From Dehalococcoidia bacterium (lineage in GTDB: Bacteria; Chloroflexota; Dehalococcoidia; Plut-88900): a stretch of DNA of 64,000 nt. Both the position numbers and the translations under genes were made by a program. Positions 7,011 through 26,386 of the stretch are shown here, piece by piece. Below the pieces are notes generated by a model. The model saw only the letters and a list, made by a program, of their open reading frames with translations, was not told where the DNA came from and searched no databases. Position 1 is the stretch's first letter, and each line of letters begins with the position of its first letter. The DNA is taken from NCBI GenBank assembly GCA_965249275.1, contig CBDFLQ010000006.1:544001-608000 (forward strand). The letters are read 5' to 3'.

Positions 7011-7060
7011 GGCCCTTGGCTTGGTCTGCGCCCCGTTCTCCGAGCTAAGGTAAACCCGGC

Positions 7061-7669: not shown

Positions 7670-7761
7670 GCCACCCACGCCACGTGGCCCCGAGGCCTCG
7701 CCAGGGACCTAGGACTTGGCCACACACACCTCTTGCAAACCAACTGCCCTGGCCACTAAAT

Positions 7762-8583: not shown

Positions 8584-8720
8584 CCTATCTCAACCTGCTA
8601 GAGCGGACACATCGGAATTCGGACAATAGTAGCATCCTCCTCAGTAGCAGGTCTTTGTAAAGGCTTTCATGGCGCTCATCGATGGCCCGGCTTGCGCGTA
8701 AACACCGCGTTCAATACACT

Positions 8721-8913: not shown

Positions 8914-8934
8914 CTTATCGGAGTAGGTACAGAC

Positions 8935-9741: not shown

Positions 9742-9746
9742 GGGAC

Positions 9747-10142: not shown

Positions 10143-10999
10143 TTGGGAGTTTCCTCTAAGCGCGTATCCCTTGCTTCGTGGATGATACCTATGAACTCGT
10201 CAGCATCGAAGGGTTCACTTGCTCTAACTACTTTTTCAGGATCGAATATCTTGGGGTTGGGGTTATTTAGGAGCGTTTCCAAGCTAGTAGGGTCGCTCCA
10301 AGCTCGAGTAGCATTGAGTTGCTTAACCTGAACGGTGATCCATTCCCCCTTCACGTTGAGTCGGCCTAGCCCGCGTACATCCACGAATCCATTTGCTAAT
10401 TTCAGCATTTCTATGTCGAGATCACTATCGAAACGCAACTGAACAAATTTATCCCCATATTGATGGAGCTGTGCCGTCCCTTTATGCCAATTCACTTCCT
10501 TCAGCCAGCCGTGCACCAATGCTTTTTCTGTGTCTGAATTTCCAACCGGAGCACGACCTACGCTTTTTATCTTTACCTTACGAGGCTTTTCATCGCTGCC
10601 AATCCAGAGGCTAACATCATCAGGCAGCGCATGTGGTATTTCGTAAAGTCTTCCCGTCACTTCCCCAGGCAGGGTGGAATCCTCGCTCCCATCCCAGTTT
10701 CTTAAGGCATCAAACGCTTGTTGGCCAAAGTCCTCCAAATACCCCTGACGGTCAGGTGGATGTTCTAGGGTCAATTCGGCAACATAAGACCCAACATGAG
10801 TAGCATTCAGACGTAAGGTACTCTGTTCGCGAACCCACTTTGGCGGCTGTCCCGGACTCCGTTGACGTTCGCCTAGGTGTTCCACTATTAGGCGCATCGC
10901 ATCTTGGACACCCTGCATTGCAATCATGAATTCATTCAGGGGCACACTACCATCGCTAACTCGACCACCATCCAATGTTACGAAAAGTTTGTCATTCAC
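10139..10999 (-). CDS. Hypothetical 286-aa protein coupled to the PIN gene
   Basis: Long ORF, AT-richer than flanks, 4-nt overlap with the PIN gene start. Confidence 0.75.
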   Translation of the reverse strand: MNDKLFVTLDGGRVSDGSVPLNEFMIAMQGVQDAMRLIVEHLGERQRSPGQPPKWVREQSTLRLNATHVGSYVAELTLEHPPDRQGYLEDFGQQAFDALRNWDGSEDSTLPGEVTGRLYEIPHALPDDVSLWIGSDEKPRKVKIKSVGRAPVGNSDTEKALVHGWLKEVNWHKGTAQLHQYGDKFVQLRFDSDLDIEMLKLANGFVDVRGLGRLNVKGEWITVQVKQLNATRAWSDPTSLETLLNNPNPKIFDPEKVVRASEPFDADEFIGIIHEARDTRLEETPN

Positions 11000-11186
11000 C
11001 GTGACCCCCTTCCTGCACCCTAGGATACCGACATGGTGTTAAAGGAGCGCGTATTATATCCTGACCTAGTCTAGATTTCTCGATTTGGATTCTAACAACA
11101 ATTGTAGCCCTACCAAGAAACGCGGAAGTTCTTTCAGTCCTTGCTAGTGAAGTTCGCAGAGGCAGCAATCCCCACTATCAGAGTCC

Positions 11187-12608
11187 CTAGTTCGCGTGCG
11201 CCATCTGCACCGGCGCAGGCCCGATCTTGTTGTAGCAGTCCAGGGCGGCGACTTTGTAGCACTCGGCGAGGGTGGGGTAGTTGAAGACAGTGTTGACGAA
11301 GTAGTCGAGGGTGCCGCCGAAGGCCAGGACGGCTTGGCCTATGTGAATGAGCTCTGAGGCCTCGGCGCCGATGATGTGGATGCCCAGCAACTCCCGGGTG
11401 TCCCTGTGAAACAGCATCTTGAGCATCCCCGTGTCGTCCCCGAGAATGTTGCCCCGCGCTATCTCCCGGTACCTGGCAAGGCCAACCTCGTAAGGGACAC
11501 CGGCCTCGGTCAAAGCCTGCTCGGTGCCACCGACCATCGATAGCTCCGGCACGGAGTAGATGCCGAAGGGGTAGTGGTGGGGGGAGGAGTGGTAGTCGAT
11601 TCCGAAGGCGTGGCAGGCCGCGGCCCTGCCCTGTTCCATGGAGGTCGAGGCCAGGGAGGGGAAGCCCACTACGTCACCGACCGCGTATATGTGGGATTGT
11701 TCAGTCTGGTAGTGATCGCCGACGGGTATGCGGCCTCGGTGGTCGGAGGTCAGGCCGGCGAAGTCGAGGTTCAGGACACCTGTTGCGCCCATCCGCCCAA
11801 CGGAATACATGAGGAGGTCGGATGTGATTCTCTTTCCCGACTTTAGCGAGGCGACGGCCTTGCCGCCGATGGACTCCACGAGCTCCACTTCCTCGCCGAA
11901 CCGGAAGATGCAACCCATGTTGCGCATGTGGTAGACGAGGGCCTCGGTCAATTCCCTGTCGACGAAATCAAGGATGCCGGAACGTTTCTCCACAACGGTG
12001 ACATCCGAGCCGAGGGCGGCGAAGATCGAGGCGTACTCGATTCCTATTACACCCGCGCCGACTACGGTCATGGTGCGCGGAATGGTGTCCAGGCTGAGGA
12101 CGCCGTCAGAGTCGACGATCGCCTTGCTGTCAACGTCGAATCCCGGCAGGGACGCGGGCGTCGTGCCGGTAGCAATGACGATCTTTTCGGCTTCGACTCG
12201 GACCGTGCCCTTTCTCCCGGTGACCGTCAAGACGTTGGGAGATTCGAAGGAGGCCTCGCCCTGCAGGACATCTACGCGATTGCGCCTCATCTGGTGGCGG
12301 ATAACCTCGGTTTCCTGGACGATCACGTGGTTGCAGCGGAAGAGGAGGTCGTCCGCCATGGAGATGTCTTCTTTGACCGTGAAGGAAGAGCCGTAGATTC
12401 CCCGCTGTCGGAAGCCGGTCAGGTATAGCACGGCCTCACGAAAGGTCTTGGAGGGGATGGTACCGGTGTTGATGCACACACCGCCGACGACTTCTCTACG
12501 CTCGCAGATCCCGATCTTTTTGCCCAGCTTGGCAGCCTGGATTGCGGCGCGTTGCCCGGCAGGCCCGGTACCGATCACGAACATATCGTAGCGTCCGTTT
12601 TCGGCCAT
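11187..12608 (-). CDS. sthA: Soluble (Si-specific) NAD(P)+ transhydrogenase
   Basis: IGTGPAG, GGVCINTGTIPSKTFREA, FNYPTLAECYKVAA. Confidence 0.93.
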   Translation of the reverse strand: MAENGRYDMFVIGTGPAGQRAAIQAAKLGKKIGICERREVVGGVCINTGTIPSKTFREAVLYLTGFRQRGIYGSSFTVKEDISMADDLLFRCNHVIVQETEVIRHQMRRNRVDVLQGEASFESPNVLTVTGRKGTVRVEAEKIVIATGTTPASLPGFDVDSKAIVDSDGVLSLDTIPRTMTVVGAGVIGIEYASIFAALGSDVTVVEKRSGILDFVDRELTEALVYHMRNMGCIFRFGEEVELVESIGGKAVASLKSGKRITSDLLMYSVGRMGATGVLNLDFAGLTSDHRGRIPVGDHYQTEQSHIYAVGDVVGFPSLASTSMEQGRAAACHAFGIDYHSSPHHYPFGIYSVPELSMVGGTEQALTEAGVPYEVGLARYREIARGNILGDDTGMLKMLFHRDTRELLGIHIIGAEASELIHIGQAVLAFGGTLDYFVNTVFNYPTLAECYKVAALDCYNKIGPAPVQMAHAN

Positions 12609-13489
12609 GTTGCTCCAAAAAGCACGTGGGGGAATTGCCTATAACGCTCTGGCAGTGTAGTTGCCGCCCGCGCGTCGTGTCAATTGAGTGCACTCGTTCG
12701 GTAGGTTAGCGACACACCGGCCTTTTCTTCAGTCCTCCAGAGGCGGATGTTCCATCTTCGATTGTGGGGTTTCGGTTTCCGTTCTGTCTGTTAGGTTTTG
12801 GGAAGGCGATGAAAGACGCTTGCTGGATTAGGCTCCCTACATTTAGATAATGCGGGCTAGGAGTCGTCCCGGGAGCGTGGGACGGGTCTCCGCCGCCGCC
12901 TAGACCTGGAAGTATGGTCGGACGTACGGGTCCGTCATCCGTCATAGGCTCCAATGAAGGTTGGCTGCGCTGCGAGACATGCAGGAAGGGGAAAGTCCAG
13001 GGTCAGTTCCCCTCGCAGGAGTACGGGGTATCCAGTTAGCCGCCTGTATCCAGGAGCCGGGAGTGGCGGACAGTCCAGTTTATTTGAGGAAGCGGACGGA
13101 GAGCCGAGCGGGCCTCGGCTACGGGCTGCCCCGTTCCGCTCCATGGGTCGGGTTGCTCCGTGAGGAGACTTTTATGTACGGTCCAGGGCGTCTTCCATCG
13201 CCTAGTGGTCAGGGAAGGGGGAAGGGTACACGGGACCCGGTGGGAAGAGGAGATGGCGACTTTCGCTTGTGCCGCGGGCCTGCGCGAGGGCCGTTGGGAT
13301 GGGCTGAGGCGTTGAGTCCTCGGGTGGGTCGGGTGGGCTTCCCTGGGTTTTTGGTTCCTCCTTAAGGTGGTTGGGCTGGTGTTCGAACGGTGCGGATAGT
13401 AGCACGGGTGTTCAGGTAATGTCAATGGGTTCGTGTCACACTTGGGTGGACACCGCCCCAGCCCCACAGGGGAACCCTCACCCCCTTAA

Positions 13490-13628
13490 TCCCCCTCTCC
13501 CTTAGGGCCTTCAAGGGAGAGGGGGAGATAAGAATAGAGGCCCACGTGCGTGCAGAGCACGCACGTGGGCCTCTAATTCAGTACTGGGGGGAGGGGGATG
13601 GATTCCCGATAGGGGTCGGGGATGACGG
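13490..13628. repeat. Cluster of REP-like palindromes: CCCCCTCTCCC..GGGAGAGGGGG, a perfect GAGGCCCACGTGCGTGC hairpin, and a GGATTCCC..GGGATGAC element
   Basis: Three adjacent inverted repeats downstream of the lipoprotein gene. Confidence 0.75.
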
Positions 13629-13650
13629 AGAGGCTGCGGATGTTTATTGA

Positions 13651-14586
13651 CTAGTTGGAGAAAGACAGGAGTTCGTCGGGGGGTTCTAGCTCATAGGGCT
13701 CGTTGTAGCCGCTGTAGGTAATGGTGATGAAGTCCCGGGTCTCGCCGTCCGAGCCCTGTTCGGCGACTATGACTTTCCTGGTCAGGAAGTCGGTGGCGTC
13801 CACGGTCCTGGTTACGCTGCCTGCCGACCCCGGAGCCAATCCCGTCCCGCCACCCTGGCCTGCAAATTCCGAAATCAAGACGTAGCCTCGGGAGCCATCA
13901 TCCAGGTCCACGATGCCGTCGAAAGAAGCGGTTGGGTCGTTGGGGGCGATTAGGAAGCCGACCAGCTGCAGGGCGGTGAGGAATTCGGTGTCGGGGGGAT
14001 CGCCTTCGTACCATTCACTGGACTCAGGGTTTTGGAAATAAGTGTCGTTACCTATGAAGACTCCGTTAGTCGTGCTGGTTGCTCCCGCTATATTCAAGAC
14101 CATCTCGAATTGGAGGCGGCCGGCTCGGGCCACGATGCCGCTCAACGTCATGGAGAAGTCGGACCCGCCGGAGCCATCCACGGGGAAGAGAGACGGCAGA
14201 TCTACTTCAGCGACGAATGAGACGTTTTCAATCTGCTCGGCGGCAAGGATGCCGCACGACGTGACCACTGCGGCACTGTCCAAGGTGCCATCGGGGGCAC
14301 ATTGAGCGGAGAGGTACCCCGAGGTGTCGACGTCCGGGCTAAGGCCGGCTGCGGGGTCGGGGGTGGGGACGGAAGTTGGTGGGGTGGTGGGTTGATCTGT
14401 AGGGGGAGGAGGTGTGGCCTCGGCTGCCGGAGCGGAGGGTTGGGTGGTGGGTGGAATAGAGGGAACGTCTGTGGGTTCGGGAGTTGCGGTTGGCTCCGGA
14501 TCGCCGCCACAGGCTACGAGGATGACCGCCGCCATGAAAAGAGCGGCTGCCACATAGACTATTCTTTTCAATTTAAACCCCTTCAA
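13651..14586 (-). CDS. Putative lipoprotein with Pro/Thr linker (possibly LppX/LolA-like fold)
   Basis: Signal peptide with lipobox LVAC, PT-rich linker, beta-rich domain. Confidence 0.75.
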   Translation of the reverse strand: MKGFKLKRIVYVAAALFMAAVILVACGGDPEPTATPEPTDVPSIPPTTQPSAPAAEATPPPPTDQPTTPPTSVPTPDPAAGLSPDVDTSGYLSAQCAPDGTLDSAAVVTSCGILAAEQIENVSFVAEVDLPSLFPVDGSGGSDFSMTLSGIVARAGRLQFEMVLNIAGATSTTNGVFIGNDTYFQNPESSEWYEGDPPDTEFLTALQLVGFLIAPNDPTASFDGIVDLDDGSRGYVLISEFAGQGGGTGLAPGSAGSVTRTVDATDFLTRKVIVAEQGSDGETRDFITITYSGYNEPYELEPPDELLSFSN

Positions 14587-14665
14587 TCAGGTGGCCGACG
14601 ATTTTAAAGCTGGTCGGCGTTCCCTAAATCGTACCATTTTTTGAACAGGGCTTGGGGAAGTGTCA

Positions 14666-14974
14666 TCAAAAAGACATGTTCAGAGTGCGCTCCAGATTGG
14701 AGAGATATTCAGCGAAGGCGCGTCGGCCTGCGGATGTGGCCTCGACCCAGGTGCGGGGCTTGGCATCCACAAACTCCTTGGTCGTGGCTACGTACCCGGC
14801 CTCCTCCAACTTTCGCAAATGGATTGTCAGGTTGCCGCCAGTCAGGCCCAGGCTCTTCTGAATGAGGCCGTAGGCGACCCGATCAGTCTGGGACCGGTGC
14901 GCCAGGAGCGTCATGATGCGAAGGCGGGTTGATTGATGAATTATCTCGTCGAGGACGGCAGGCGCGTCACTCAT
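14666..14974 (-). CDS. Winged-helix transcriptional regulator (HTH_34/ArsR-like)
   Basis: IHQSTRLRIM, LTGGNLTIHLRKLEEAGYV, KPRTW. Confidence 0.9.
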   Translation of the reverse strand: MSDAPAVLDEIIHQSTRLRIMTLLAHRSQTDRVAYGLIQKSLGLTGGNLTIHLRKLEEAGYVATTKEFVDAKPRTWVEATSAGRRAFAEYLSNLERTLNMSF

Positions 14975-15606
14975 GCGACGCCGGTTTTGCGAATCCAAGT
15001 CCAGGCTATGGCCACGGCCGTCAACACGAGTACGGCTGATACAGCGTTAGAAAAATCTCCGGCGAAATAGGAAGGCGCGTAGTGAGCGGCGGCGATACCC
15101 ACGCCCATGAGTGCAATTGCCTTGTGATGCATGATGCCAAAAAGAATGTAACCGAGCGCTACAATCCCTACGGCTACACGGGATATGGCAAGCTCATTGG
15201 ACTCAATAGTCCACAAGCCGGACGCCGCCGGGATGACGAAAGCGGCCGTGATAACGGTCATCCAGAAGAAGAACACTCGGAGCCCGGCGCGGGTGGCAGT
15301 AGGACCGTCGGAGTTCGCGTGCCCGGCTCGGTACCCCAATATGGAGCTGCCGATCATGCCAATAGTCCCTAACACGCCCCACAAGGGGCCCGGAAACCAG
15401 GGATAGTCGTCTGCAAATGTCGGGAAAGCCACCTCCACTACGAATTGAGTCAGGTAGCCCACCGAAACGATGACTCCCCATAGCAACAAGATGGATGGCC
15501 AACCCGCCACATACATAAGGCTGCGGGACCTGTCCAAAGTTGCGTGAATGGACTCCCATGCGTCCTCTGAAGTAATGCGATGTTCTTCACGATCTTGATT
15601 CTTCAT
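14971..15606 (-). CDS. Multi-TM membrane protein coupled to the regulator
   Basis: About 6 hydrophobic segments; ATGA overlap. Confidence 0.8.
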   Translation of the reverse strand: MKNQDREEHRITSEDAWESIHATLDRSRSLMYVAGWPSILLLWGVIVSVGYLTQFVVEVAFPTFADDYPWFPGPLWGVLGTIGMIGSSILGYRAGHANSDGPTATRAGLRVFFFWMTVITAAFVIPAASGLWTIESNELAISRVAVGIVALGYILFGIMHHKAIALMGVGIAAAHYAPSYFAGDFSNAVSAVLVLTAVAIAWTWIRKTGVA

Positions 15607-15650
15607 GTTATCTCTCCCGGCAGCCTTGGTTTTTGCCCGTATGTGCAAAC

Positions 15651-15669
15651 TAGTTTGTAATACAAACTA
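15651..15669. promoter_or_regulatory. Palindromic operator TAGTTTGTA-A-TACAAACTA in the promoter of the membrane protein/wHTH operon
   Basis: Perfect 9-1-9 palindrome just downstream of minus-strand TTGACA (15675-15680). Confidence 0.6.
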
Positions 15670-16065
15670 TCTCGTGTCAAGAGGAGCACGGGTGGGCTGA
15701 GGTTCACGTGGGGGATAGATAAGGATCGGGCCGGGCTGCCGAGGGCAGATGAGGGGGTGGAATCAAGTGAAGGGGACGTCGGATTGTATGCCGTCAGCTG
15801 AACTCCGTAGCTTCTGCGTTCCGGCGGGTCTTCAGCGGTGGCCGGTAGGGACAAATGTCGGGTTCCAGAACGCACCTTTATTGCGGGAGCATCATATACG
15901 GCGCCGGCTTTATTAAAGCACTGGTTTGAAAATCATCGGCCACCGGAGTGCTGAATCCCACGCCACGCAAGGTCGATTCTAAGAGTGAGAATGCGTGATG
16001 TGCAGCTATCTAGGTCGAGGAGGTTCGCCGAACACGCGGTAGGCGGGGGGGCGGCCATGCGGAAA

Positions 16066-16142
16066 TGGTGGGCGATACTGGACTCGAACCAGTGACCTCT
16101 GCGATGTCAACGCAGCGCTCTAACCAACTGAGCTAACCGCCC
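16066..16142 (-). tRNA. tRNA-Val(GAC)
   Basis: Reverse complement GGGCGGTTAGCTCAG...TTGACAT...ATCGCCCACCA. Confidence 0.97.
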
Positions 16143-16288
16143 CGGTGTTCCGAGTCTAGCAAAGGGGATTTTGCGAGTCAACAAAGGCTCGGGCGGCAGG
16201 GGTCAAGGGCCTGAGGGAGGCACATAATTGCGATTACGTCAAGTTGAGGTAGGGACGGGCAAGAAAACAAGTAGCAGGTGGACAATCC

Positions 16289-16579
16289 TTAAAAGGATTC
16301 AGCTTCAACGAACAAGAATTTCTCTATCTGCTCGATTACCTGGTCGAAATTTGTAAATGCCAAAAGTGCGCACGTCCCACATAACACTGCCTTCTTTTTT
16401 TGGACGCTTTCAAAGGAGACCATAGCGTGGGATTTGCCAGCCGTCCCCGTGTCGGCCCGTTTAGTTGTCAGGGCGTAACGAAGGGCTTCTACAGGTATCT
16501 CTTGGCTACATCTATAGCAGGAGATAATAGATTCCTCTTTGGGGAGAGCGGTAAGGCGAATGGCAACTAGGTTTGTCAT
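16289..16579 (-). CDS. Small CxxC...CxxC protein
   Basis: CYRC...CGTC; same strand and close spacing after the kiwa genes. Confidence 0.55.
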   Translation of the reverse strand: MTNLVAIRLTALPKEESIISCYRCSQEIPVEALRYALTTKRADTGTAGKSHAMVSFESVQKKKAVLCGTCALLAFTNFDQVIEQIEKFLFVEAESF

Positions 16580-16619
16580 TTTTTAGTAATGGCGACCTAA
16601 CTTACGAGATGGAAACTCG

Positions 16620-16847
16620 CTACCATCCGGCGTCCGTAAGCCTGTTGCCGCAGGGGCATTGAATGATCGTAGTTTCGTGATGGTGTTCTCCGTGGTTAAT
16701 CACTGTAAATCCCTCTGGCACACTGCGAATGTGTCTACCTCGGCTCCCCTTAACAAATGACCAACCGTCGTTCTCTCTAACTTCAACGACACCACCACGA
16801 CCGCAATCAGGGCATCTGAGATCCCTGCTGTACCTGTCAGTTGCCAT
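16620..16847 (-). CDS. Small Zn-ribbon-like protein
   Basis: AAGGAG RBS; CPDC...CPC. Confidence 0.65.
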   Translation of the reverse strand: MATDRYSRDLRCPDCGRGGVVEVRENDGWSFVKGSRGRHIRSVPEGFTVINHGEHHHETTIIQCPCGNRLTDAGW

Positions 16848-16879
16848 TGGCCGTTACTCCTTGCAGGTGGATCGGCTGG

Positions 16880-17803
16880 TTAATTTAGGGGCGGAGCTGG
16901 GCGCTGGGAGTTGGTAATGAACGGGGTTCCCGAAAACGCTCCACGCCAGCGGCTGTCCGATATGAATTGCAAAAACGCTTTAAGTAGGTACCGCTCTGCA
17001 GGTATCTGTACTTTTCCGTCACTGACGCGGATAGGAAACTCTGTCTGGTCGGCCACCTCCTGACTGTATTTGGTGGTTAGGTTAGTCAGAATTCCGCGTG
17101 TTTGTATTTCTGTTATGCGTTTACGGTCGAGTTGGTCTAGGGCATCCACCACATACTCGATGTTGGTGTTGTCAAATACTTCGGCTTGAACAAAGGCCAT
17201 CACCTCTTTTTCCGTCGCTGCCTTGTATCGTTCCTTTAGGTCAAAAATGGGGCGTACCGCCTGCAGGCCCTTAAAAAGCATCTGTTGTTCTTCAACAATA
17301 CAGACCAGGGAGCGTCCCAGGGTTAAAACAGGGTCGGACAAACGGTCAAATCTGTCGTGCTGGAGAACCATTGCTATTAGGTCGCGACGTTGGAGTAATT
17401 GTTGAGCCGTAAACCCCTGTACTAAGACCCGTGTGCCGTCGATGGGGTAGGAGGGGACACACAAGGCTTTGATGTTGCCCCTAGATAGGTCTTCTGTATC
17501 TAGTTCCTCAACCGCCAATGAACCACCTGTAATCTGGTTAAAAATACTGGCGGCATCGGGGGTTAGTGGGGTGACAAACGTTTCGTCAGGACCCGCTTTC
17601 CAGGTACCCGACGTTTCGTACGGTATATCCTCGACGTTGCCCTCTCTAAAACTCTCGGCTTGTCTTTCAAACATGCGGCCAACTGCAACCTGGAGGCGCG
17701 AGGTTAGCCTTATGCGCCGAGCAACCACTTCCCCTTTCCTGGGCTTACAGATCGCAAAGAGATTCGGGGCATTGTCCTCGGTTATCTCTGTCCTTGTCGT
17801 CAA
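16880..17803 (-). CDS. kwaB: Kiwa anti-phage protein KwaB-like (DUF4868)
   Basis: ~300 aa; VLVQGFTAQQLL, FDLKERYKAAT, FL.FI.D..W.G.FS...FITNS.R pattern; follows a 4-TM gene. Confidence 0.75.
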   Translation of the reverse strand: MTTRTEITEDNAPNLFAICKPRKGEVVARRIRLTSRLQVAVGRMFERQAESFREGNVEDIPYETSGTWKAGPDETFVTPLTPDAASIFNQITGGSLAVEELDTEDLSRGNIKALCVPSYPIDGTRVLVQGFTAQQLLQRRDLIAMVLQHDRFDRLSDPVLTLGRSLVCIVEEQQMLFKGLQAVRPIFDLKERYKAATEKEVMAFVQAEVFDNTNIEYVVDALDQLDRKRITEIQTRGILTNLTTKYSQEVADQTEFPIRVSDGKVQIPAERYLLKAFLQFISDSRWRGAFSGTPFITNSQRPAPPLN

Positions 17804-18323
17804 GTGAGTGAGTCTCCCCTCTGTCCATTAGGGTGTAGGTGGAAAGCTCGATCACATTAACGTATTTTGTTACATTGCGCAATTTTTGCCTTGATAACAA
17901 GATATACGATATGCCTTCGGGAGTACTAACTTTGTAAAAGTGCCAACCCATTATGACCAGTAGGGGGTTAAGGTGGTGATAGTGCCCTGTCACCATCCAA
18001 GCTAAGAACAATGCCCCCGCTGGAATCAGTATGACCCAATTGGTTTGCAGTGTTGGAGTTTCAAGAAGGGGAACCAGGTACAGTACCAAGATACCTAACG
18101 ATTCTTGGTCAGCGGCCTCGGCTCCGGTTAGCTGTAGGGGTATACGCTCGGCGTTGCTATGGTAGTAACGCAGTAAGAGGATTCCGCCAACCAAGAACAA
18201 GACCCCAACGCCCCCCACACAACTGGCCCGTATGTAGTGACCTCCTATTGCTCCCACAATTCCGTACACCCACAACACGGGCGCAACGGACATACCTGTC
18301 AAGATAAAACTACTTAAGTTCAT
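17745..18323 (-). CDS. kwaA: Kiwa anti-phage membrane protein KwaA-like
   Basis: Four TM segments; YLVPL and NPLLVIMGWHFYKV motifs; overlaps kwaB. Confidence 0.75.
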   Translation of the reverse strand: MNLSSFILTGMSVAPVLWVYGIVGAIGGHYIRASCVGGVGVLFLVGGILLLRYYHSNAERIPLQLTGAEAADQESLGILVLYLVPLLETPTLQTNWVILIPAGALFLAWMVTGHYHHLNPLLVIMGWHFYKVSTPEGISYILLSRQKLRNVTKYVNVIELSTYTLMDRGETHSLDDKDRDNRGQCPESLCDL

Positions 18324-18725
18324 CGTCGAATGGGTGGGATTCCAGGGGGTGGCTGTTTGTGGGTTCCAGTATACAACACCGCCACAATCTCGCTGTACCC
18401 AAAAGGTCGGTTTTGGACCACACCTTACCTCCGTTTGTCAAGTGCCCGCCACCCCCCTGTCCTCGTGTCTTAGACACACCGCCCGCCATGTCCTGAGCTA
18501 GCTTATTTTCCCGCCCTTTTTCGCCCCTATTTAGGCCTGTAGCCATGTGATAAGCAACTCTTTTAGTATTGTCATAGCGGCGGCCATAGTTGCTAAAGTT
18601 GACACTTTAGCGTATCATAACAAGTACATCAAAGAAAAACCCCGACAGGTTGCAGCCCGTCGGGGTTCTAAAAGGTCACTGTCATTACCAGTGGCCTTCC
18701 ACCCACAAGGAAGTATCGGTTCCCA

Positions 18726-19955
18726 GTGGTCACGCTAAAGTATACAGCAAACATAGCAGATGAGCAAAACACTCGCTCATATTGCGAACTGAAAAAGGAG
18801 CTTTCCAGCCTGAACGACACCGGTCTACTTCAACGGCTGGAAGCCTACCGCCTGGTGGGGCGTAAAGGTTACTCGCTCCGTGCTCTCTGGCGGGCCTACG
18901 CCTGTTCCTACCTGTTAAACCTTCCCAGTACCAACACCCTTATTCGTAGACTCCGCAATGACTTCGAACTCCGGAAACTATGTGGCTTTACCAGACTTCC
19001 CCACCGAATGACCTTTAACCGCTTCGTAAACCGGTTGTCCCACCACCCCAGCCTTGTGGAGCAGGCATTTGCGGGGGTTACCAATGAACTTAAGGGCTTC
19101 CTGCCCGACCTGGGCGAGGAAGTGGCGGTGGACTCCACGGTTGTGAAGAGTTACAGCCGACCACACCATAAAGACCTCAGTGATCCCGAAGCCTCGTGGA
19201 CGGCCAAGAACAGTCCCCGGGCCAAAAAGGACGGCAAGGAATGGTTTTGGGGATACAAGGTTCACATGGTGGCCGATGCCAACCACGGACTACCCCTTGC
19301 CCAGTACGTCACAACAGCCAGCCGTAATGACAGCCCGGAGCTACCCAATGTCATAGCACAGGCCGAGAGCCTGTACTCATGGTTTATGCCGGAGGCCGCT
19401 ATGGCTGACAGGGGGTACGACTCCAAAGCCAACCATGAATACCTTTGGGGTAAGGGTATTCTCCCAATTATCCACATAAGGCGAAAGGGGGGTATACGAC
19501 CGAAGGGTGGTAGTGAGTTTTATGACGACACCTTTACCAAGGAGGGAGTACCCGTATGTCTGGGCAGAATCCCCATGCGGTACATTTGCAGTGATCCCAA
19601 GCGGGGCCACCTGTACCGGTGCGTGGGTTGCCACCTGGCGGAGTCATTTAGGGGTGGCATAAGGCACTGTGATACCGAGATATGGCAGGACCCGACCGAA
19701 AACCTTCGGTTGTTTGGAGCCATTAGACGGGAGGGGCCGGAGTGGAAAGCCCGGTATGCCAAACGGCAGGCCATAGAACGGGTCTTCAAGTCCATGAAAG
19801 AGTCCCGGAGGCTAGATCGTCACTACCTCCGAAGGTTGCGCAAGATCAGCCTTCACGCCCTTATGTCGGTACTGACTTTTCAGGTGACGGCCCTGGTAAA
19901 GGCCCGGCAAGGGCGGTTTGGCGAGCTTAGGTGGCAGGTCGAGAAGGTAGCCTAA
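18726..19955 (+). CDS. DDE transposase, IS1182/IS5-like (DUF772 + DDE_Tnp_1)
   Basis: GRKGYS, LCGF..LPH..TFNRF, AVDSTVV, DPEASW, WGYKVH, ADRGYDS, Y..RQAIERVF. Confidence 0.9.
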   Translation: MVTLKYTANIADEQNTRSYCELKKELSSLNDTGLLQRLEAYRLVGRKGYSLRALWRAYACSYLLNLPSTNTLIRRLRNDFELRKLCGFTRLPHRMTFNRFVNRLSHHPSLVEQAFAGVTNELKGFLPDLGEEVAVDSTVVKSYSRPHHKDLSDPEASWTAKNSPRAKKDGKEWFWGYKVHMVADANHGLPLAQYVTTASRNDSPELPNVIAQAESLYSWFMPEAAMADRGYDSKANHEYLWGKGILPIIHIRRKGGIRPKGGSEFYDDTFTKEGVPVCLGRIPMRYICSDPKRGHLYRCVGCHLAESFRGGIRHCDTEIWQDPTENLRLFGAIRREGPEWKARYAKRQAIERVFKSMKESRRLDRHYLRRLRKISLHALMSVLTFQVTALVKARQGRFGELRWQVEKVA

Positions 19956-20159
19956 ACGAGTCGAGTTTCTGATTGACACGACCCCATGTCCGGCGTAGTC
20001 TAGTCTTAGCGACAGTGGTTCACTGGTTACACATACCCAATTCCCGTTATTCCATGCTTGGCCAGGAGAGTGGCCACATGCTCCCTCCTGGCTGGAATAA
20101 CGAGGGCTGGGCCACTGTCGCAAGTACCCACTCTTCTGCTGGAGGGAGCACTTCGCGTT

Positions 20160-21692
20160 ATGTCCCTGAAAGTTAAGTTTGTATTCGCCGTCCTACTATT
20201 AGTGAGTATCTGTGTACTGGCCTCCTGCCGTGGACAGGAGGCCGTTCCTCTGGACACACCCACAGCCCCAGTACTCACGCCTACGGCACAATCCACACCG
20301 AACACACCGGCTACCGCGCAGGCAAGCCCTCTCCCAACCGCCGCTCCTCCGTCCGTTTCGCCGCCACCCTCCCCAACTCCTCTTCCTACCTACACAACCG
20401 CCACGGTCACCCCTATTCCCATTTACACTCCTGTGCCCAAACCAGCCGCAACCCCAGCCACCACGCCGATCCCAACCCCGACCTCAACGCCTATTCTTGT
20501 TCCCACGCCCACACCTACCCCGATAGTCTTATACGTCCAGGGCTGGGACAGACTCCGCAATTGGGGGTGGGTGGAGAGTATTCGTCCCCTGCTAGCGTCC
20601 GCGATTAAGTCAACATCGTGGATAGAAGACGGGATAAGCGACGAGGTTGAACGTAAGGCCGCACAAAACCTTTTGGATATGGCTTCCTGGACTGATATGG
20701 ACCTACCCACCCTCGTACATATTCTTGAATCCCCTTTTCTCGAAACCCTGACACCTTCCGATGCCTGGACATTGCACGAGTTGAGGAACTACGCCGAATA
20801 CGAACAGGACTACTTTGCCCGACTTATGGAGCTACCGTCTATTCAAGACGGAATAGACGATACCGAGGCCAAGATTATCGGTGCCCTGTGGCCGTTTGAC
20901 TACGACAGGAATTTGCGGGCAATGATAGAACCGGCGTACACAATTGAGCGTAGTATCGACTTTCCAATATCAGGCCCCACAGACCTAACGGTGTTGCGAT
21001 TGGGACAACCACCTGCCGAGATGACCTTTAACCGTCTGGAAGAGGTAATTCGCCATATGGAGGCGGTACTGCAACAGCCTCTACCCGACAACAATATCTT
21101 ACTCATACTTTCCGACAAGGTTTATAACAGTCGTGGAGGGCCGCCTTTGGAGGGCGATTACTCAGGACTCAAGTTCGGGGGGCAAATGGTAATACTAGAG
21201 ACGTTTGACACGACTGCAACTAACATTCTGGGCGCAACCGGCATCATTGCACATGAGACGGCCCACTACTACTTTTTAAGAGGCCCCCACTGGCTGGTCG
21301 AAGGTTTTGCCGAGGGTGCGCGGGCAGTCGTGGAGTCGTCTATCACAGGGAAACCCTTGGACTTAAATGACCCAAGCCTAGCACTATGTCCCGATGTCAG
21401 TACCTTTAGGGAGCTAGAGGATGCGCGCATAAGGGTAAATGATGATGAAGACGCCATTGTGTCCAAACTGGATGTTTGGGGTTCAGCTAACGGAGGTGGT
21501 CTCGGTCATTGCTCAGGACATTTTGGCAAACGTGCTTTTGTACAGCTATACCTTGAACTGGACTCCGACCAGTTCCACAAGGGGCTGCAAGAACTGTTGA
21601 CCAAAACGGCTGTATTTACTAACACGGAAGAGGCCACAGTAGAGGATGTTATTTCAGCATTTGGTCCAGTGGCAGAAAAGATATTTGGATGA
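20160..21692 (+). CDS. Lipoprotein with PT linker and gluzincin-like metallopeptidase domain
   Basis: Lipobox VLASC, PT repeats, IAHETAHYY...WLVEGFAE; upstream TTGACA-17-TAGTCT (19973-20001). Confidence 0.8.
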   Translation: MSLKVKFVFAVLLLVSICVLASCRGQEAVPLDTPTAPVLTPTAQSTPNTPATAQASPLPTAAPPSVSPPPSPTPLPTYTTATVTPIPIYTPVPKPAATPATTPIPTPTSTPILVPTPTPTPIVLYVQGWDRLRNWGWVESIRPLLASAIKSTSWIEDGISDEVERKAAQNLLDMASWTDMDLPTLVHILESPFLETLTPSDAWTLHELRNYAEYEQDYFARLMELPSIQDGIDDTEAKIIGALWPFDYDRNLRAMIEPAYTIERSIDFPISGPTDLTVLRLGQPPAEMTFNRLEEVIRHMEAVLQQPLPDNNILLILSDKVYNSRGGPPLEGDYSGLKFGGQMVILETFDTTATNILGATGIIAHETAHYYFLRGPHWLVEGFAEGARAVVESSITGKPLDLNDPSLALCPDVSTFRELEDARIRVNDDEDAIVSKLDVWGSANGGGLGHCSGHFGKRAFVQLYLELDSDQFHKGLQELLTKTAVFTNTEEATVEDVISAFGPVAEKIFG

Positions 21693-21756
21693 GGTCTTAA
21701 TGATTACCAGGTCGCTAGGTCATGTACCAATAAGCTAACAATAGGGAAGGCAAAGA

Positions 21757-22044
21757 ATGTGCATCTTAAAGAACCAGTTCAAGACATATCGACGCCGACG
21801 CTGGCGAGGCGGTTCCAGACGACAGGGGCCTCCCTGGGAGGCGGTGGCAATAGCCGCAGTGCCCGACTGGGTAAAGCGTGCTACCAGTCGGGCAACAAGT
21901 TTGCAGGAAGGGCAGTCCCGAGAAATGACCGTCAACGGCAGGACGTTCCAGTACAAGGTATCGGCCACCCAACACCCTCAGCGATGGCAGGGGGATTCGG
22001 GCCTGGAAGTGAACTACTACAAGAGATTACGGCGAGGCCGATAA
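21757..22044 (+). CDS. Hypothetical basic protein
   Basis: ORF in a run of same-strand small ORFs. Confidence 0.4.
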   Translation: MCILKNQFKTYRRRRWRGGSRRQGPPWEAVAIAAVPDWVKRATSRATSLQEGQSREMTVNGRTFQYKVSATQHPQRWQGDSGLEVNYYKRLRRGR

Positions 22045-22083
22045 CACCACCACCCTGCCCGCGTGGTCGGCCGAGGGATACCA

Positions 22084-22251
22084 GTGATAAAGCGCATCCT
22101 AAAATATGTGTGGGGCAGTTCCTGCATCCTCTACGCCCTAAGCGTAGTGTCAGCCCTGCTCCTGGGTTACTGGGATTGGTGGGTGCTACTGGTAGCCGTG
22201 TTGGGGGTGGTTACCTTTGGGATATGGCGGCGGGTTTCACGGGGCCAGTAA
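22084..22251 (+). CDS. Small 2-TM protein
   Basis: GAGGG RBS before GTG; hydrophobic hairpin. Confidence 0.5.
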   Translation: MIKRILKYVWGSSCILYALSVVSALLLGYWDWWVLLVAVLGVVTFGIWRRVSRGQ

Positions 22252-22255
22252 CAGC

Positions 22256-22552
22256 ATGACGCAACCCTGGGAAAACACCAAGCTTCCGGAACCCCATGAC
22301 CCGATGTACACGTGCCCCGGCCCCGGCTGGCACAGCGAAGGGCTCTACTATGACCATGACCTCCGGTGGATGCAGGGTAAGCCTGATACCCGCCATCCCC
22401 AAGACGGCTTTTACTGCGATTCCTGTATTCATGCCGCGGAGCGAGAGGCTGGAAAGGGCAGCCGACCGGAAGTTGTATTGGGGCCGACATTGTATGAGGC
22501 GGTACTGCGGAAGCGGGGGCTGGCAACCACTAAACAGGCGACCAACATATAG
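22256..22552 (+). CDS. Small Cys/His protein
   Basis: YTCPGPGWH...FYCDSC. Confidence 0.55.
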   Translation: MTQPWENTKLPEPHDPMYTCPGPGWHSEGLYYDHDLRWMQGKPDTRHPQDGFYCDSCIHAAEREAGKGSRPEVVLGPTLYEAVLRKRGLATTKQATNI

Positions 22553-22573
22553 TTAGGAAAGGCGGGGGGTTAA

Positions 22574-23461
22574 ATGGGTGTACCGGACATTTCTTATGCG
22601 GCCGAGGTGGCAAAAAAAGTCGCCCATGATTTTTACACCGACCAGTTAGACCTATCCGACAGGGCTGCGGGACCGGGACGGGCATGGTCCCGTATGCCAG
22701 AAGTTGAATGTGTAACCCGCCTGCGTAGGTCGGGAGTGTCACCCAGAACCATTCGGTTGTTTTTGACGTTTATTGCGGCCATGAACCGTCCCCGGGACTC
22801 CGCCCGCCTTTGGAATAACGGTGTCCAGTTGTTTTACCAGTACCCGGAACTATTTGACCCCGCGGAGACCTCGGTGATGCCGCTTGCCAGTGTCCGCCGG
22901 TACCTCTCGCAATATGGGGTTAGTCTACGTCACGAATCAGACTCTTTTGCATGGCACGTTATTGCCCGCAACCTTACCCATGACAACCCAATACGTCGGG
23001 TGGTAAATGATGGGGTTGGAAACGCCGGTGAGTTGCTCCAGTACCTTCATACCAGCTCCCAGGAGCAAACCCGATTCCCATTGCTTAGAGGGCCGAAAAT
23101 TGGCCCCATGTGGATGCGTATGCTGGTTGCTCCGGGTGGGGCCACCATAGCCAACATGGACATCATTCCGGTTGCGGTAGACGTGCATGTTTGCCGCGCT
23201 ACCAAGAACCTTGGAGTGGCTGACACTGGGGGTTTGTCTAGGCGGGCGTCCAGACAACTGGTTCAGGACACATGGCAGGCCGCTGTAGCCAAAACGGATA
23301 TTGGAGGCCCGCCAGGTATAGCCAACACTTGTGCCGCCCTTGATCCGGCTCTTTGGGTGTTTGGGAAATTTGGGTGCGGGTATTGTATGCGGTTGCCGGA
23401 GCCGATACCTATTGGTCGGGCCTGCGATCACTGCCAGCTTCGTGGTTCAAGCGATAGCTGA
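22574..23461 (+). CDS. HhH-GPD superfamily DNA glycosylase-like protein
   Basis: LRGPKIGPMW (HhH Lys), PVAVDVHV (catalytic Asp), LDPALW, C-terminal CxxC-x12-CxxC. Confidence 0.75.
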   Translation: MGVPDISYAAEVAKKVAHDFYTDQLDLSDRAAGPGRAWSRMPEVECVTRLRRSGVSPRTIRLFLTFIAAMNRPRDSARLWNNGVQLFYQYPELFDPAETSVMPLASVRRYLSQYGVSLRHESDSFAWHVIARNLTHDNPIRRVVNDGVGNAGELLQYLHTSSQEQTRFPLLRGPKIGPMWMRMLVAPGGATIANMDIIPVAVDVHVCRATKNLGVADTGGLSRRASRQLVQDTWQAAVAKTDIGGPPGIANTCAALDPALWVFGKFGCGYCMRLPEPIPIGRACDHCQLRGSSDS

Positions 23462-23481
23462 ACCGATGGTAGTGGTTATTC

Positions 23482-24009
23482 TTATCGTTTGCGTTTATTT
23501 TGTCGTCGACGTGGCCCTCGAAGTTGACTCTTTAGCTTTATTTGAGACATGCCGACCACATTACTATCGTGTAAGCGTAGAGTGACGGTCTGATTAACAA
23601 AGTCGACAAGTAAATTCACCACTCCCAGGACATCCATTCCCAATAGCGACGGCGCCCCTTTATTTCGAACTATGGCATAATGGTTTTTAACAGTGGGGCC
23701 TATACCAATGGCTCGTCGAACCTGTACGTTGCCCATGTGTAAAATCACGTCTTCTTTTGCGTACTTAGTTGTACCTCCTACACCCGTCGCCTCTAATTGT
23801 GCGGAATACAAGTTTCCCATAGGGATTCCTAGGTTTTCGATATCCCCAGGGTGAAGGGTTGTGGTATCTGCGCCAGTGTCCACTAGAAATGACACTGGGG
23901 CTTTAATGTTAAACCTCGGAATCTCCAGTAAGATAGAAACGAAAGGCCGACCGCTAATTTGGCCAGCCCTTGTTAGTTTTAATCCAAAGTACCCGTTAAT
24001 AATGGTCAC
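23482..24009 (-). CDS. Retropepsin-like aspartyl protease (copy 2)
   Basis: FLVDTGADTT, GVGG flap, SLLGMDVL. Confidence 0.88.
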   Translation of the reverse strand: MTIINGYFGLKLTRAGQISGRPFVSILLEIPRFNIKAPVSFLVDTGADTTTLHPGDIENLGIPMGNLYSAQLEATGVGGTTKYAKEDVILHMGNVQVRRAIGIGPTVKNHYAIVRNKGAPSLLGMDVLGVVNLLVDFVNQTVTLRLHDSNVVGMSQIKLKSQLRGPRRRQNKRKR

Positions 24010-24248
24010 AAAATAAAGTCACTGGGTGTTCTAGTGAGAAACACCACTGCCAAGTTTTTGTTGTCGTGCTTTGATCGAGCTTTTTTCAGGGCTACAGTAA
24101 GTTCGGGGTGTTGACTGACGATTTTTCCACCATAAGCCACTACCCATGACTCCGGGTATTTCTCCAGTAACTCCGGGCGCTTAGCCTGAATTAAGATTTG
24201 GTCTTTGTCAAACTGTTCTACAATAGCCCGCGTAGAAACTTCGGCCAT
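24006..24248 (-). CDS. DUF5678-like small protein (copy 2)
   Basis: ELLEKYPESWVVAYGGKIV; GTGA overlap with protease. Confidence 0.8.
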   Translation of the reverse strand: MAEVSTRAIVEQFDKDQILIQAKRPELLEKYPESWVVAYGGKIVSQHPELTVALKKARSKHDNKNLAVVFLTRTPSDFIL

Positions 24249-24540
24249 GTCAACCCCCTATCAGCAAAAAATAAAAGACATTTACTATAATACCGCAGTC
24301 AAGACCCTAATTAAAGTAAGGGCATTTGCCTTAAACTAAAGCATTTGCCTTTGAAAACACTGTATTTGGCACAGTGGAAAAACAATGATGGGTACCTTTC
24401 AACACCCTCCAAAAACCCCGCACCTGCCAGCCGCCTACCCCGATTACTCCGCTTGCCAGATAGACTAACATGGGTTAGTTTTATACCTGTAGCTTAACGT
24501 AACCGCAATTATGTGCCTCCCTCAAGGGCCTCAATCTGCC

Positions 24541-24625
24541 TTGCAATAAGTCGGCTCCCTCTGATATAATCGGCCCAACTTAAGGCCAGTTCGTGGAAGA
24601 AGTGGGGAGCACCCCACTTTTTTTA
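24541..24625 (+). promoter_or_regulatory. nusA operon promoter and rimP-type leader hairpin
   Basis: TTGCAA..TATAAT, then AAGTGGGG-AGCA-CCCCACTT followed by a T-run. Confidence 0.7.
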
Positions 24626-24664
24626 ATACGGCCCAAAAGTCCGGATTGGAGGGTATAGGCCGGT

Positions 24665-26386
24665 ATGAAAAGCGATTTCCTAATCGCGGTAACTCAGCTT
24701 GCCTCTGAGAGAAATTTGCCGCGCGAAGTGGTTATTTCCGCTATCGAAGCTGCCCTCGTCTCCGTCTACAAGAGAGAGGGCGAGACCGCAGGCCAGAACC
24801 TGTCGGTCAAGATCCTCCCCACCACCGGCGAGGTGAAAGTCGCCGCGCTGAAGACGGTCGTCGAAGAGGTGACCGATACAGACCTGGAAATTACTTCCAA
24901 AGAGGCGAACAAATACAAGAAGGGCGCGGCCATCGGCGAGATCATCGAGATTGAGTCGACGGGCCAATTCGCCGGCAGGATCGCTGCCCAGACGGCCAAA
25001 CAGGTCGTTATGCAGCGCCTTCGGGAAGCCGAGCGTGAACTGGTCTACCAGGAGTTCTCCGACAAGGAGGGCGAGATAGCCAGCGCCATCGTCCAGCGCC
25101 TCGAGCCCAGGCAGGTGATCGTCGACATCGACAAGACGGAAGCCGTTATGCCCGCGCCCGAGATTCCACCCAATGAGCGGTGCCGACCGGGACAGAGAAT
25201 GAAGGTCCTGGTACTTGAAGTAAGCCGCAGTGTGAAGGGCCCGCAGGTTATCGTATCCCGGACCCACAAAGACCTGGTCAAACGCCTATTCGAGTTGGAA
25301 GTGCCGGAGGTCTACAACGGCACGGTGGAGATCCGTTCCATCGCCCGGGAGGCGGGTTACCGGACCAAGGTGGCGGTCTCGGCGCGGCAGGAGGGCATAG
25401 ACCCCGTCGGGTCATGCGTGGGCCTGCGAGGTATCCGAATACAGAACATAGTCAACGAGCTCCACGGCGAAAAGATTGACGTAGTGCAGTGGGACAGGGA
25501 TCCATCCGCCTTCATTGCCAACTCCCTAAGCCCGGCCCAGGTGGCTCGGGTGGAGATCGAAGAAGAGGAAGAGTCCGCAGTAGTAGTCGTGGCAGATCGG
25601 CACCTGTCTCTGGCCATAGGCAAGGAAGGGCAGAACGCCCGGCTAGCCGCAAAACTCACGGGGTGGCGCATCGACATCAAGGGTGTCAGCGACGCCGGTG
25701 AGAGCAAGATACGAGCGGCAGCCATCGCAGCCCTTACCCGGCCGGCGCCCACGGTTGAAGAGCCTACCCCCGACCCCGTGGCCCTCGAGGTTGAGACTCC
25801 CGAGCCGGAGGAATTGGCCGCAGTAGCTGCAGGGGTGCTCGAAGAGGCAGCAGCCGTAGTTGAAGAGGCCGCCGCTGCACTGGCCGAACCGGTCATTGAA
25901 GTGGAGCCCGCGGAACTGCTGGATATTGAAGAGGCCCCGGCGCCGGAAGAGCTGGCCCCGGTAGCCGAGTTGGCGCCCATCGCCGAACCCGAGCCGGTAT
26001 TCGAAGAGGTGGCCGTGCCCGCCTTCCCCGAACCCGCTCCCCAAGCCATTGAGGATATCTGGCCAAGCACCGAGCAAGAGATTTATCGCCCTGCTACCGA
26101 GCTCAGGTTCGCTGAGGACCTGGACATCTTCATTCCAGGCCGTGGTGGCAACAAATCCAAGGGCAAGAAGCGCAAAGGTGCGAAGAGAGGAAGAGGTCCG
26201 GGCGGCGGGCCGTCCAGAGGCCCGGGCGGCGGGATGTCCAGAGGTCCAGGTGGTGGTGGACCGTCCAGAGGCCCGGGTGGTGGAGGTGGACCGTCCAGAG
26301 GTTCGGGGGGTGGAGGCGGGCCATCCAGAGGTCCGGGGGGTGGCAGCTTCGCTCCATTCCCCATCTCGCCAAGGACCCGTCGGTAG
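24665..26386 (+). CDS. nusA: Transcription termination factor NusA with long low-complexity tail
   Basis: [44 protein letters not shown]. Confidence 0.97.
26192..26345 (+). repeat. In-frame tandem repeat encoding about six (S)RGPGGG(G)P units
   Basis: TCCAGAGG recurs five times at 24-30 bp spacing. Confidence 0.9.

Follow-up and report, generated by a model that had tools for sequence, protein, structure and literature searches.

A probable unit transposon with a single transposase and a predicted Kiwa system between tRNA-Val and nusA of a Dehalococcoidia genome, and its cargo-bearing relatives

The window studied here is a 64,000-nucleotide stretch of the genome of a Dehalococcoidia bacterium (assembly GCA_965249275.1, contig CBDFLQ010000006.1, positions 544,001 to 608,000), and positions 16213–24523 within it are very probably a unit transposon of the type called a transporter insertion sequence (transporter IS, or tIS). 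One pair of terminal inverted repeats (IRs) encloses a single transposase gene and at least 11 further open reading frames (ORFs), which lie on both sides of that gene, and a short target site duplication (TSD) flanks the whole. IRs of the same family and extra genes are likewise present in all 19 resolved elements of this transposase clade, and related genomes of the genus hold the site without the element.

Element ends and the empty site

The terminal arms lie at 16212–16243 (left end, IRL, + strand) and 24493–24524 (right end, IRR, – strand, the partner of IRL). A repeat search gives them as 32 nt long, complementary at 30/32 positions (94%) and 8249 nt apart. The runner-up pair in 15500–25500 has 22 nt at 77%, and in 30 mononucleotide shuffles of the same interval the best 32-nt pair did not exceed 25/32. 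IRL is placed both by this pairing and by alignment with the ends of related elements, in which its family-aligned tip, GAGGG, begins at 16213. GC content is 0.523 in the element, as compared to 0.578 and 0.595 in the adjoining 8 kb to the left and right. The original prediction, made from the letters of this stretch, had described 32-bp repeats bounding an AT-richer block, and the repeat search, the shuffles and the GC values all bear this out.

Read directly, GGTCAAGGGCCT is followed by GAGGGAGG at the left junction and CCTCCCTC by AAGGGCCTCAATC at the right. The flanking duplication can be read either as AGGGCC (6 bp) with TG...CA ends or as AAGGGCCT (8 bp) with GAGG..CCTC ends. This ambiguity, pointed out in the original prediction, is real: 10 letters are compatible with either side of the joint when metagenome contigs are aligned to the window. 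The left copy of AAGGGCCT occupies 16205–16212 and the right copy 24524–24531, each 6–8 bp long depending on the choice of tip, and the empty sites described below contain a single copy. The element stands between the divergent tRNA-Val(gac) gene (16066–16142, – strand) and nusA (24665–26386). As predicted, neither promoter is broken. The tRNA-Val promoter-like site, TTGACT-17-TAGACT (16153–16181, – strand), is intact 23 bp outside the TSD, and the nusA promoter-like site, TTGCAA-18-TATAAT (24541–24570, + strand), is intact with its –35 hexamer starting 9 bp outside the TSD.

The 876 bases that adjoin the element on its right were used as a query against eight other genomes of the genus, and the match reached the junction (query base 1) in four of them, G002, G005, G003 and G001. 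The empty site that had been predicted, GGTCAAGGGCCTCAATC, is found at the corresponding place in G002, G005 and G003 and has the duplicated bases once; the order there is tRNA-Val, ...GGGGTCAAGGGC[C/G]T[C/T]AATCTGCC..., nusA leader, with nothing in between; G001 has a variant form. The flanks of the three exact sites are 95–97% identical to those of the window, and the insertion is therefore likely to be recent. Contigs from four public sequencing runs (three studies) were also aligned to 15700–25100, and the joint from 16202 to 24522, with 8319 bases skipped, occurs in all four runs. The source sample contains contigs across the left junction (16116–19283, depth 6.5) and the right junction (19260–24551, depth 5.1), as well as empty-site contigs at depth 22.7. 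The unit thus has a TSD on either side, and a site that is otherwise identical lacks it, as is expected of a transporter IS.

A different account, raised alongside the original prediction, is that of an integrase-borne genomic island inserted beside a tRNA gene, with the short repeat as its att core. Proximity to tRNA-Val and a GC content below that of the surroundings would suit such an island, but Pfam and NCBIfam searches find no integrase or recombinase among the ORFs of the element, and the insertion lies upstream of the tRNA promoter and not at the tRNA 3' end. Moreover, the ends are 32-bp inverted and not direct repeats, and the same IR family occurs at many unrelated sites. An att-type island is effectively refuted by these observations, and we give it next to no credence.

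The transposase and its related elements

The transposase gene (18726–19955, + strand), which codes for 409 amino acids (aa), is the sole mobility gene of the window element. Its product matches DDE_Tnp_1 (PF01609; E 2e-20, 73.9 bits) and DUF772 (PF05598; E 8.1e-13) in Pfam, and it passes PF13751 (DDE_Tnp_1_6-type) at 25.5 bits, just over the cut-off of 25.1, and thereby has the DUF772 plus C-terminal domain combination that characterizes IS1182. In an alignment of 19 sequences (the window protein and 18 homologues), D136, D228 and E351 are invariant, as are Y344, R347 and K358, and a Cys-rich insertion separates the second D from the E. The YREK motif (Y-x2-R-x3-E-x6-K) served to assign the invariant columns to what we take to be the catalytic triad. 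Because it is full-length and has the invariant D-D-E/YREK residues, the transposase looks intact.

On sequence grounds, the protein belongs to a deeply divergent, unclassified IS1182/IS5-like clade. Among annotated plasmid-borne transposases, identity does not exceed 29%, and the top two of 673 homologues at E<=1e-20, P0001 (88% identical) and P0002 (82%), both come from metagenome assemblies. Of 301 genomes sampled from the class, three have matches at E<=1e-60, and all three are of the window's genus. A species-representative collection holds 36 homologue loci, all in Dehalococcoidia or Chloroflexota metagenome-assembled genomes (MAGs), and a metagenome contig scan with the transposase alignment added two short loci that were uninformative. 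The window genome (G000) also contains 12 weak matches (22–23 bits) on its contigs C5, C6 and C7 (loci L005–L010; for example C7:682403-682885), 11 of them at 26–27% identity in 318-aa frames and one at 34% in a 333-aa frame. These are a different, distantly related transposase and represent a separate multi-copy IS.

The ends of 23 of the 36 loci could be resolved, 17 from paired IRs together with a TSD no shorter than 5 bp, one (L151) with an IRR at four mismatches, and five (L161–L165) by copy comparison. Together with the window element, a second element in the window's own genome and an element in G005, these amount to 26 insertion events of 19 distinct elements, 3188–13380 bp in length. 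The second element of the window genome is 6980 bp long and has a 10-bp TSD, A-type IRs and a transposase 61% identical to that of the window. Across the 26 events the TSD is most often 7 bp (14 events) or 6 bp (seven), with two of 8 bp and one each of 5, 9 and 10 bp. The family IR consensus is GAGGGAAGTGCAAAAC, and the window IR reads GAGGGAGGCACATAAT. With 6-kb flanks L031 showed one end only and L032–L034 no IR pair, while with 10-kb flanks L031 (the same locus as L155) proved to be an element of 11,159 bp. A bare or compact IS was seen in none of the 19 elements, and this includes the ~1.5-kb form of the homologues that had been named beforehand as the observation that would speak against a unit transposon.

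Several elements are present more than once in the same genome: 4529 bp twice at 99.93% identity, 3351 bp twice at 100%, 10404 bp twice at 100%, and 3188 bp five times. Cargo included, the copies occupy 2–5 sites per genome, each with different flanks and its own TSD. Judged from these copies, whole cargo-bearing units transpose in relatives. The prediction of a unit transposon resembling a transporter IS is supported in this way by homologues that stand within IR pairs of one family and by units duplicated at different sites. The transposase would bind both 32-bp IRs and pair them across 8.3 kb, everything between the IRs would move as one piece, and integration by a staggered cut of ~6–8 bp would generate the duplication.

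A number of points weigh against this reading of the window copy. Thirteen of the 36 loci (L154, L157, L158, L159, L166, L168, L172, L173, L174, L176, L177, L179 and L181) are without resolved ends, owing to contig ends, partial genes or a single visible end, and could hide compact forms. The window IR is the most divergent of the family, matching the consensus at 11/16 positions (5/16 differ), and a position weight matrix derived from the remaining elements does not rank it above a chance site within nusA. The only other near-identical window-type IR found is a solo end in G006 (L012, G006:C5, 10240–10273; 94% identical to the window IRL over 34 nt). It has no partner within 10 kb, the nearest three-mismatch candidate being 56 kb off, and neither the window cargo nor the window transposase was found near it. 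The top NCBIfam model, IS1182 (NF033551), reaches 136 bits in two matching stretches only, under its cut-off of 270, and the best IS5 model (among NF033581 and NF033578-80) reaches 89.5 bits, under a cut-off of 140. The window's own genome holds no second copy of the element, and no circle junction or same-strain excision was seen in the aligned run contigs. The empty-site contigs of the source sample carry at 16164 the variant found in related genomes, and so probably derive from related strains and not from excision within the same strain. As regards the divergent IR, ends in L171, an internal end of L140 and the solo end of G006 bridge it to the family consensus. Since the element is single-copy in its genome, we can only infer that the window copy was moved by its own transposase.

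The single copy, the divergent IR and the lack of junction or circle evidence in the aligned contigs would also fit a block that transposed in and is now immobile or requires a transposase in trans, its central gene being a passenger or acting on other ends. Transposase-less IR pairs of this sort are found in relatives, one of 686 bp in L039 (6652–7337) with perfect family tips and the TSD ATTCAG, and others of 925, 2036 and 4879 bp; non-autonomous derivatives therefore exist and trans-mobilisation occurs in the family. Yet the window transposase ORF is full-length with all catalytic residues, the IRs agree at 30/32 positions, the TSD is perfect, and empty sites with flanks as similar as those above imply that the insertion is recent. 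The only other clade member in the genome, with its 61% identity and A-type IRs, is a poorer candidate for acting on the window ends. We consider it unlikely that the window copy is such a fossil or dependent element.

It is less probable still that the transposase arrived as a compact IS inserted into an older, IR-bounded cassette that had no transposase, so that the outer IRs would be unrelated to it. Stacking of ends does occur. The G005 element L140 (G005:C1:921500-941499, at 3992–17371; 13380 bp, ~50-bp IRs, TSD GACCGT) contains three more IRs that resemble right ends and are oriented alike; they end at 13107, 15041 and 16347. No left partners were found for these internal ends, and one left end may serve several right ends. 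IS1595-type transposases are, in addition, nested in two related elements. Around the window transposase, by contrast, no inner IR-like ends were found within four mismatches of 16 or by a generic IR search, which agrees with the earlier remark that no IRs of its own were found for the single transposase, and compact forms are absent from all 19 resolved elements. In L146, L148 and L151 the transposase gene starts 70–250 bp from the outer family IR. Finally, a 4979-nt contig of run X6 keeps the gene order of the window, with a transposase ~89% identical over 18702–19948 and, after it, the lipoprotein gene and small module at ~96%. No second IS copy or composite-transposon arrangement was found in the window element.

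Two exact-word scans were set aside. A 21-mer of the window IR, run against genome contigs, gave one match, in an Actinomycetaceae MAG, which equals the chance expectation. The family-consensus 16-mer gave, among the matches listed, mostly chance hits in unrelated phyla, and these served as a negative control. One 'delta proteobacterium' MAG (L043, L070, L075, L106, L113 and L120) has seven copies of a repeat containing the family 16-mer; conservation extends outside the 16-mer, which is therefore internal to another repeated element of that MAG.

Insertion sites and promoter geometry

In the reconstructed empty sites, TTGAC was noticed at a constant distance from the duplication. Sites were scored for TTGACA-N16-18-TATAAT with at least 9/12 matches, at least 4/6 per hexamer, reading outward and with the –35 hexamer starting 7–10 bp beyond the TSD. 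Of the first 21 events, on which the hypothesis was formed, 10 match, as compared to 28 matches when 20000 half-sites were drawn at random from these loci. The 3188-bp element, whose five copies were added afterwards, gives 3/5. Overall, 13 of the 26 events (13/52 half-sites) match, versus 50/40000 control half-sites (0.125%). The offsets are narrowly distributed: +7 once, +8 three times, +9 eight times and +10 once, with single matches at +2, +18, +23 and +29, so that 13 of the 17 promoter-like matches within 0–35 bp lie at +7 to +10, with a mode of +9 and a –10 spacing of 16–18 bp. Several of the matches lead into long outward ORFs. The window match is the nusA site, with TTGCAA at +9 and TATAAT 18 bp on, and a consensus scanner agrees. 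Among the chance 16-mer matches listed from other phyla, 0 of 78 have a promoter site. The resolved set shows a sharp preference of position.

It is an evenly balanced question whether this geometry reflects mechanistic target choice. If it does, the transposon would insert at a fixed distance, 8–10 bp, upstream of the –35 hexamer of a sigma-70-type promoter. The window element, which separates the divergent promoters of tRNA-Val and nusA, would have been placed by the nusA –35, which begins 9 bp from it. Because the landing site would be promoter-upstream DNA, the gene and its core promoter would stay unbroken. The transposase may read TTGAC directly or may contact polymerase bound at the promoter, or such effects may be mixed with selection.

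Several results count against such a mechanism. Between 11 and 13 of the 26 events are without such a promoter. Among the matches listed from the 16-mer scan, only 1 of 15 single IR ends in Chloroflexota has such a site, and among solo ends 1 of 6, both fewer than the ~1/4 expected. In the 686-bp element of L039, TTGAC lies 9 bp past the TSD without a –10 hexamer. The three transposase-less pairs that were identified afterwards speak in favour in that each has a promoter-like site at the corresponding distance (3/3), but they are without an exact TSD. Selection against gene-disrupting insertions must contribute.

Survivorship alone, in which insertion is blind to promoters (or reads a short TTGAC-like word) and selection removes the gene-breaking insertions, comes close to being an even proposition, although it falls a little short of one. 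The weak replication at single ends and the TTGAC without a –10 in L039 are what it would lead one to expect, as are the roughly half of all events that have no such feature and the insertions in hairpin loops (L178, L171 and L146). It also predicts a broad spread of distances, whereas the matches cluster at +7 to +10 over a control rate of 0.125%, have a –10 hexamer at the proper spacing, and in several cases precede long outward ORFs.

A more elaborate proposal is that the transposase, alone or via promoter-bound RNA polymerase or sigma factor, reads promoter architecture, and that ends stacked at such sites capture cargo. This is tentative and, in our judgement, somewhat doubtful. Ends would accumulate at favoured sites and the outermost pair would then be used, as the one left and four right ends of L140 suggest. 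If true, promoter-upstream DNA would constitute a generic, gene-sparing 'safe harbour' available hundreds of times per genome, and stacking would explain why every member carries cargo, why cargo can flank the transposase gene left and right, and how Kiwa or restriction-modification (R-M) genes are picked up. A fixed distance to the –35 hexamer, if mechanistic, could be a new kind of target choice; a term-based search of the open-access literature found no promoter-upstream target choice of this kind described.

A preference for hairpin targets, as in IS1272, was considered and rejected for the set as a whole, since the folding energies of 21 reconstructed empty sites are similar to those of random flanking windows (Mann-Whitney p 0.57). 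Individual hairpin-loop insertions do occur in L178, L171 and L146. The reconstructed site of L178 (OZ244707.1, ~9163 and 14918) places the insertion in the loop of a hairpin with a perfect 25-bp stem (DNA fold –28.7 kcal/mol).

Cargo genes and comparison with known systems

The left part of the window element is transcribed toward IRL. Closest to the end are a 96-aa Cys-containing ORF (16289–16579, – strand), which has no Pfam or PADLOC match and weak ferredoxin-like NCBIfam matches far under the cut-off, and a 75-aa Cys-rich ORF (16620–16847, – strand) with no family match in Pfam, NCBIfam or PADLOC. They are followed by kwaB (16880–17803, – strand), a DUF4868 gene matched over its full length by PADLOC KwaB (E 1.8e-72) and by Pfam KwaB at 30.5 bits (cut-off 26.3), and by kwaA (17745–18323, – strand), the membrane component (PADLOC KwaA, E 4.3e-41; NCBIfam KwaA at 36 bits, under its cut-off of 100). 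The two genes overlap on the same strand, and the PADLOC matches confirm them as a Kiwa anti-phage system whose activity is predicted. A strong intrinsic-terminator-like hairpin with 14 pairs and a T-tail (18636–18669, – strand) separates the Kiwa operon from the transposase gene. An Rfam NsiR1 match at the same position (29.9, gathering threshold 39) probably reflects the terminator shape; nothing inside the element passes gathering in the Rfam scan, where the flanking tRNA alone does so. Upstream of the transposase gene, a consensus scan marks TTGCTA-17-TATCAT (18590–18618, + strand) as a promoter-like site. Promoter-like sites are no more numerous in the region than in shuffles, and this one is therefore a candidate only.

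Downstream of the transposase gene lies a structured intergenic insert (19956–20159, + strand) with a long imperfect hairpin of ~120 nt at ~20009–20127 (RNA fold –80.8 kcal/mol, z –3.07). Elsewhere in G005 (C1:2367216-2367310) there is a copy of 96 nt with 84% identity, and in the related element of run X6 this place is taken by 548 different letters; the insert may be a small palindromic mobile repeat. The next gene codes for a probable lipoprotein that has a Pro/Thr-rich linker and, as HETAH, an HExxH motif, and that is a putative secreted metallopeptidase to go by that motif (20160–21692, + strand; translation MSLKVKFVFAVLLLVSICVLASC...). The listed ORF, of 544 aa, begins at 20058 and the signal peptide at the ATG at 20160; the protein has no Pfam, NCBIfam or PADLOC match and no relative in PDB. 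Two small conserved genes, for a small hydrophobic protein and then a Cys-containing protein of ~100 aa (22045–22552, + strand), share 62% and 50% amino acid identity with L140 11993–12485 in G005 and stand downstream of the transposase in both elements.

A 295-aa protein with a C-terminal cluster of four cysteines (22574–23461, + strand) is likely, though not securely, an HhH-GPD-type DNA glycosylase. It has 591 homologues and no Pfam domain, and a PDB sequence search gave nothing useful. Its nearest protein-atlas clusters are AGOG/HhH-GPD (score 0.95). With the AF2 (AlphaFold) model, of pLDDT 86.8, Foldseek returned from PDB almost exclusively EndoIII, AGOG and MutY glycosylases and the queuine-salvage DUF2419 fold, all weak matches (E ~1e-2, TM 0.37–0.52), and we take its AVDVHV segment to resemble the EndoIII catalytic-Asp motif. 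Near the right end, a retropepsin-like aspartyl protease (23482–24009, – strand; Pfam gag-asp_proteas 1.3e-9 and Asp_protease_2, weak PADLOC PDC-M08B) has a small DUF5678 protein as its upstream partner (24006–24248, – strand; 23.7 bits, cut-off 23.2), and a homologue of the protease is found in the cargo of L170. The cargo named in the original prediction is thus identified by PADLOC for Kiwa and by Pfam for the protease pair, and has fold-level support for the glycosylase.

Outside the element, the nusA leader (24596–24625) contains a terminator-like hairpin with a T-run (GTGGGGAGCACCCCAC TTTTTTT), placed after the promoter-like site and before the start of nusA. The hairpin is kept in four aligned related genomes and may be a leader attenuator of nusA.

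The cargo varies greatly across the family. When ORFs were clustered for 18 elements (the 3188-bp element was excluded), the transposase alone was common to all 18, and 131 of 177 ORFs were singletons. Most cargo elsewhere consists of secreted proteases, lipoproteins and unassigned proteins. Trypsin-like peptidases, several with collagen repeats, occur in at least four elements (L148, L156, L169 and L178), and L151 and L155 have collagen-repeat proteins without a peptidase domain. Other recurrent genes code for CAP-domain proteins and for Pro/Thr-rich lipoproteins adjoining the transposase gene, and in four elements a DUF4145-like ORF lies upstream of the transposase. Only a minority of the cargo is of defence type: Kiwa in the window, an Eco57I-like enzyme of 968 aa in G005 and, in two other elements, a D12 methyltransferase and a methyltransferase-HNH fusion. 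The term 'defence transposon', used in the original prediction, therefore fits the window copy and not the family. The X6 contig diverges from the window on the Kiwa side and past 22532, and the G005 element shares with the window only the small two-gene module besides the transposase. Given this pattern of sharing, Kiwa seems to have been added more recently, to an older core that would consist of the transposase, the lipoprotein and the small genes. The cargo is exchangeable.

Single-transposase elements with passengers are known and are treated as exceptions, while here a whole clade, found so far in public data only in Chloroflexota (the 673 proteins above), has cargo in every resolved case. 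For this reason the clade lends itself naturally to the study of how IS-like elements turn into vehicles for genes. It would also provide a simple route for moving a complete Kiwa system and R-M genes within the little-studied, uncultured Dehalococcoidia.

Passenger-carrying ISs include examples of the IS1595 family; a term search of the open-access literature found none in Dehalococcoidia. Elements of the IS5 and IS1182 families are ~1–2 kb in length, IS1182 members being compact ISs of ~1.3–2 kb with short IRs. The window transposase resembles them in combining DUF772 and PF01609 with YREK in a single ORF between terminal IRs, and differs in scoring below the curated cut-offs (NF033581, NF033551), in its Cys-rich insertion and in belonging to elements of 3.2–13.4 kb. 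Tn7-like transposons carry defence cargo to 'safe' sites by means of TnsABC and a target selector that uses an att site or a guide RNA. The window element likewise brings anti-phage cargo to a gene-sparing site, but it has one DDE transposase and its candidate target is a generic promoter-upstream site.

Transporter ISs are a category of ISfinder/ISsaga (PMC3129680). In keeping with that category, the window element has an IS-type transposase and unrelated passengers within one IR pair, with a TSD around the whole. What sets it apart is its transposase clade, in which cargo reaches ~12 kb and appears to be the rule (19/19 resolved elements), and the complete defence system of the window copy. 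IS1182-type elements are described as moving either alone or with passengers, and as doing so with a duplication in some cases and without one in others (PMC12056078). The nearest parallel is TnSha1 of staphylococci, in which IS1272, of the IS1182 family, mobilises sh-fabI by means of a surrogate IRL' (Furi et al. 2016, PMC4923244). According to that account, the IRL' is degenerate (69% identity), and the element inserts in hairpin stems with no TSD and with partial deletion of the target. As described there, TnSha1 shares with the window element a single IS1182-type DDE transposase, a passenger inside, an IR beyond the passenger and no accessory transposition genes. Unlike TnSha1 as so described, the window element has near-perfect IRs, and its family makes TSDs of 5–10 bp and does not prefer hairpins overall. 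The window cargo also lies on both sides of the transposase gene, and the two transposases are distantly related (the IS1182 model gives 136 bits, under 270). IS1272 is normally a bare IS, a form seen in none of the 19 resolved elements of the present clade. The window element therefore represents a kind that is already known, the passenger-carrying transposon with a single transposase, and differs from the cases described in its TSDs, its near-perfect IRs, the cargo in every resolved element of its clade and an apparent promoter-proximal targeting, of which the last could be new if it is mechanistic.

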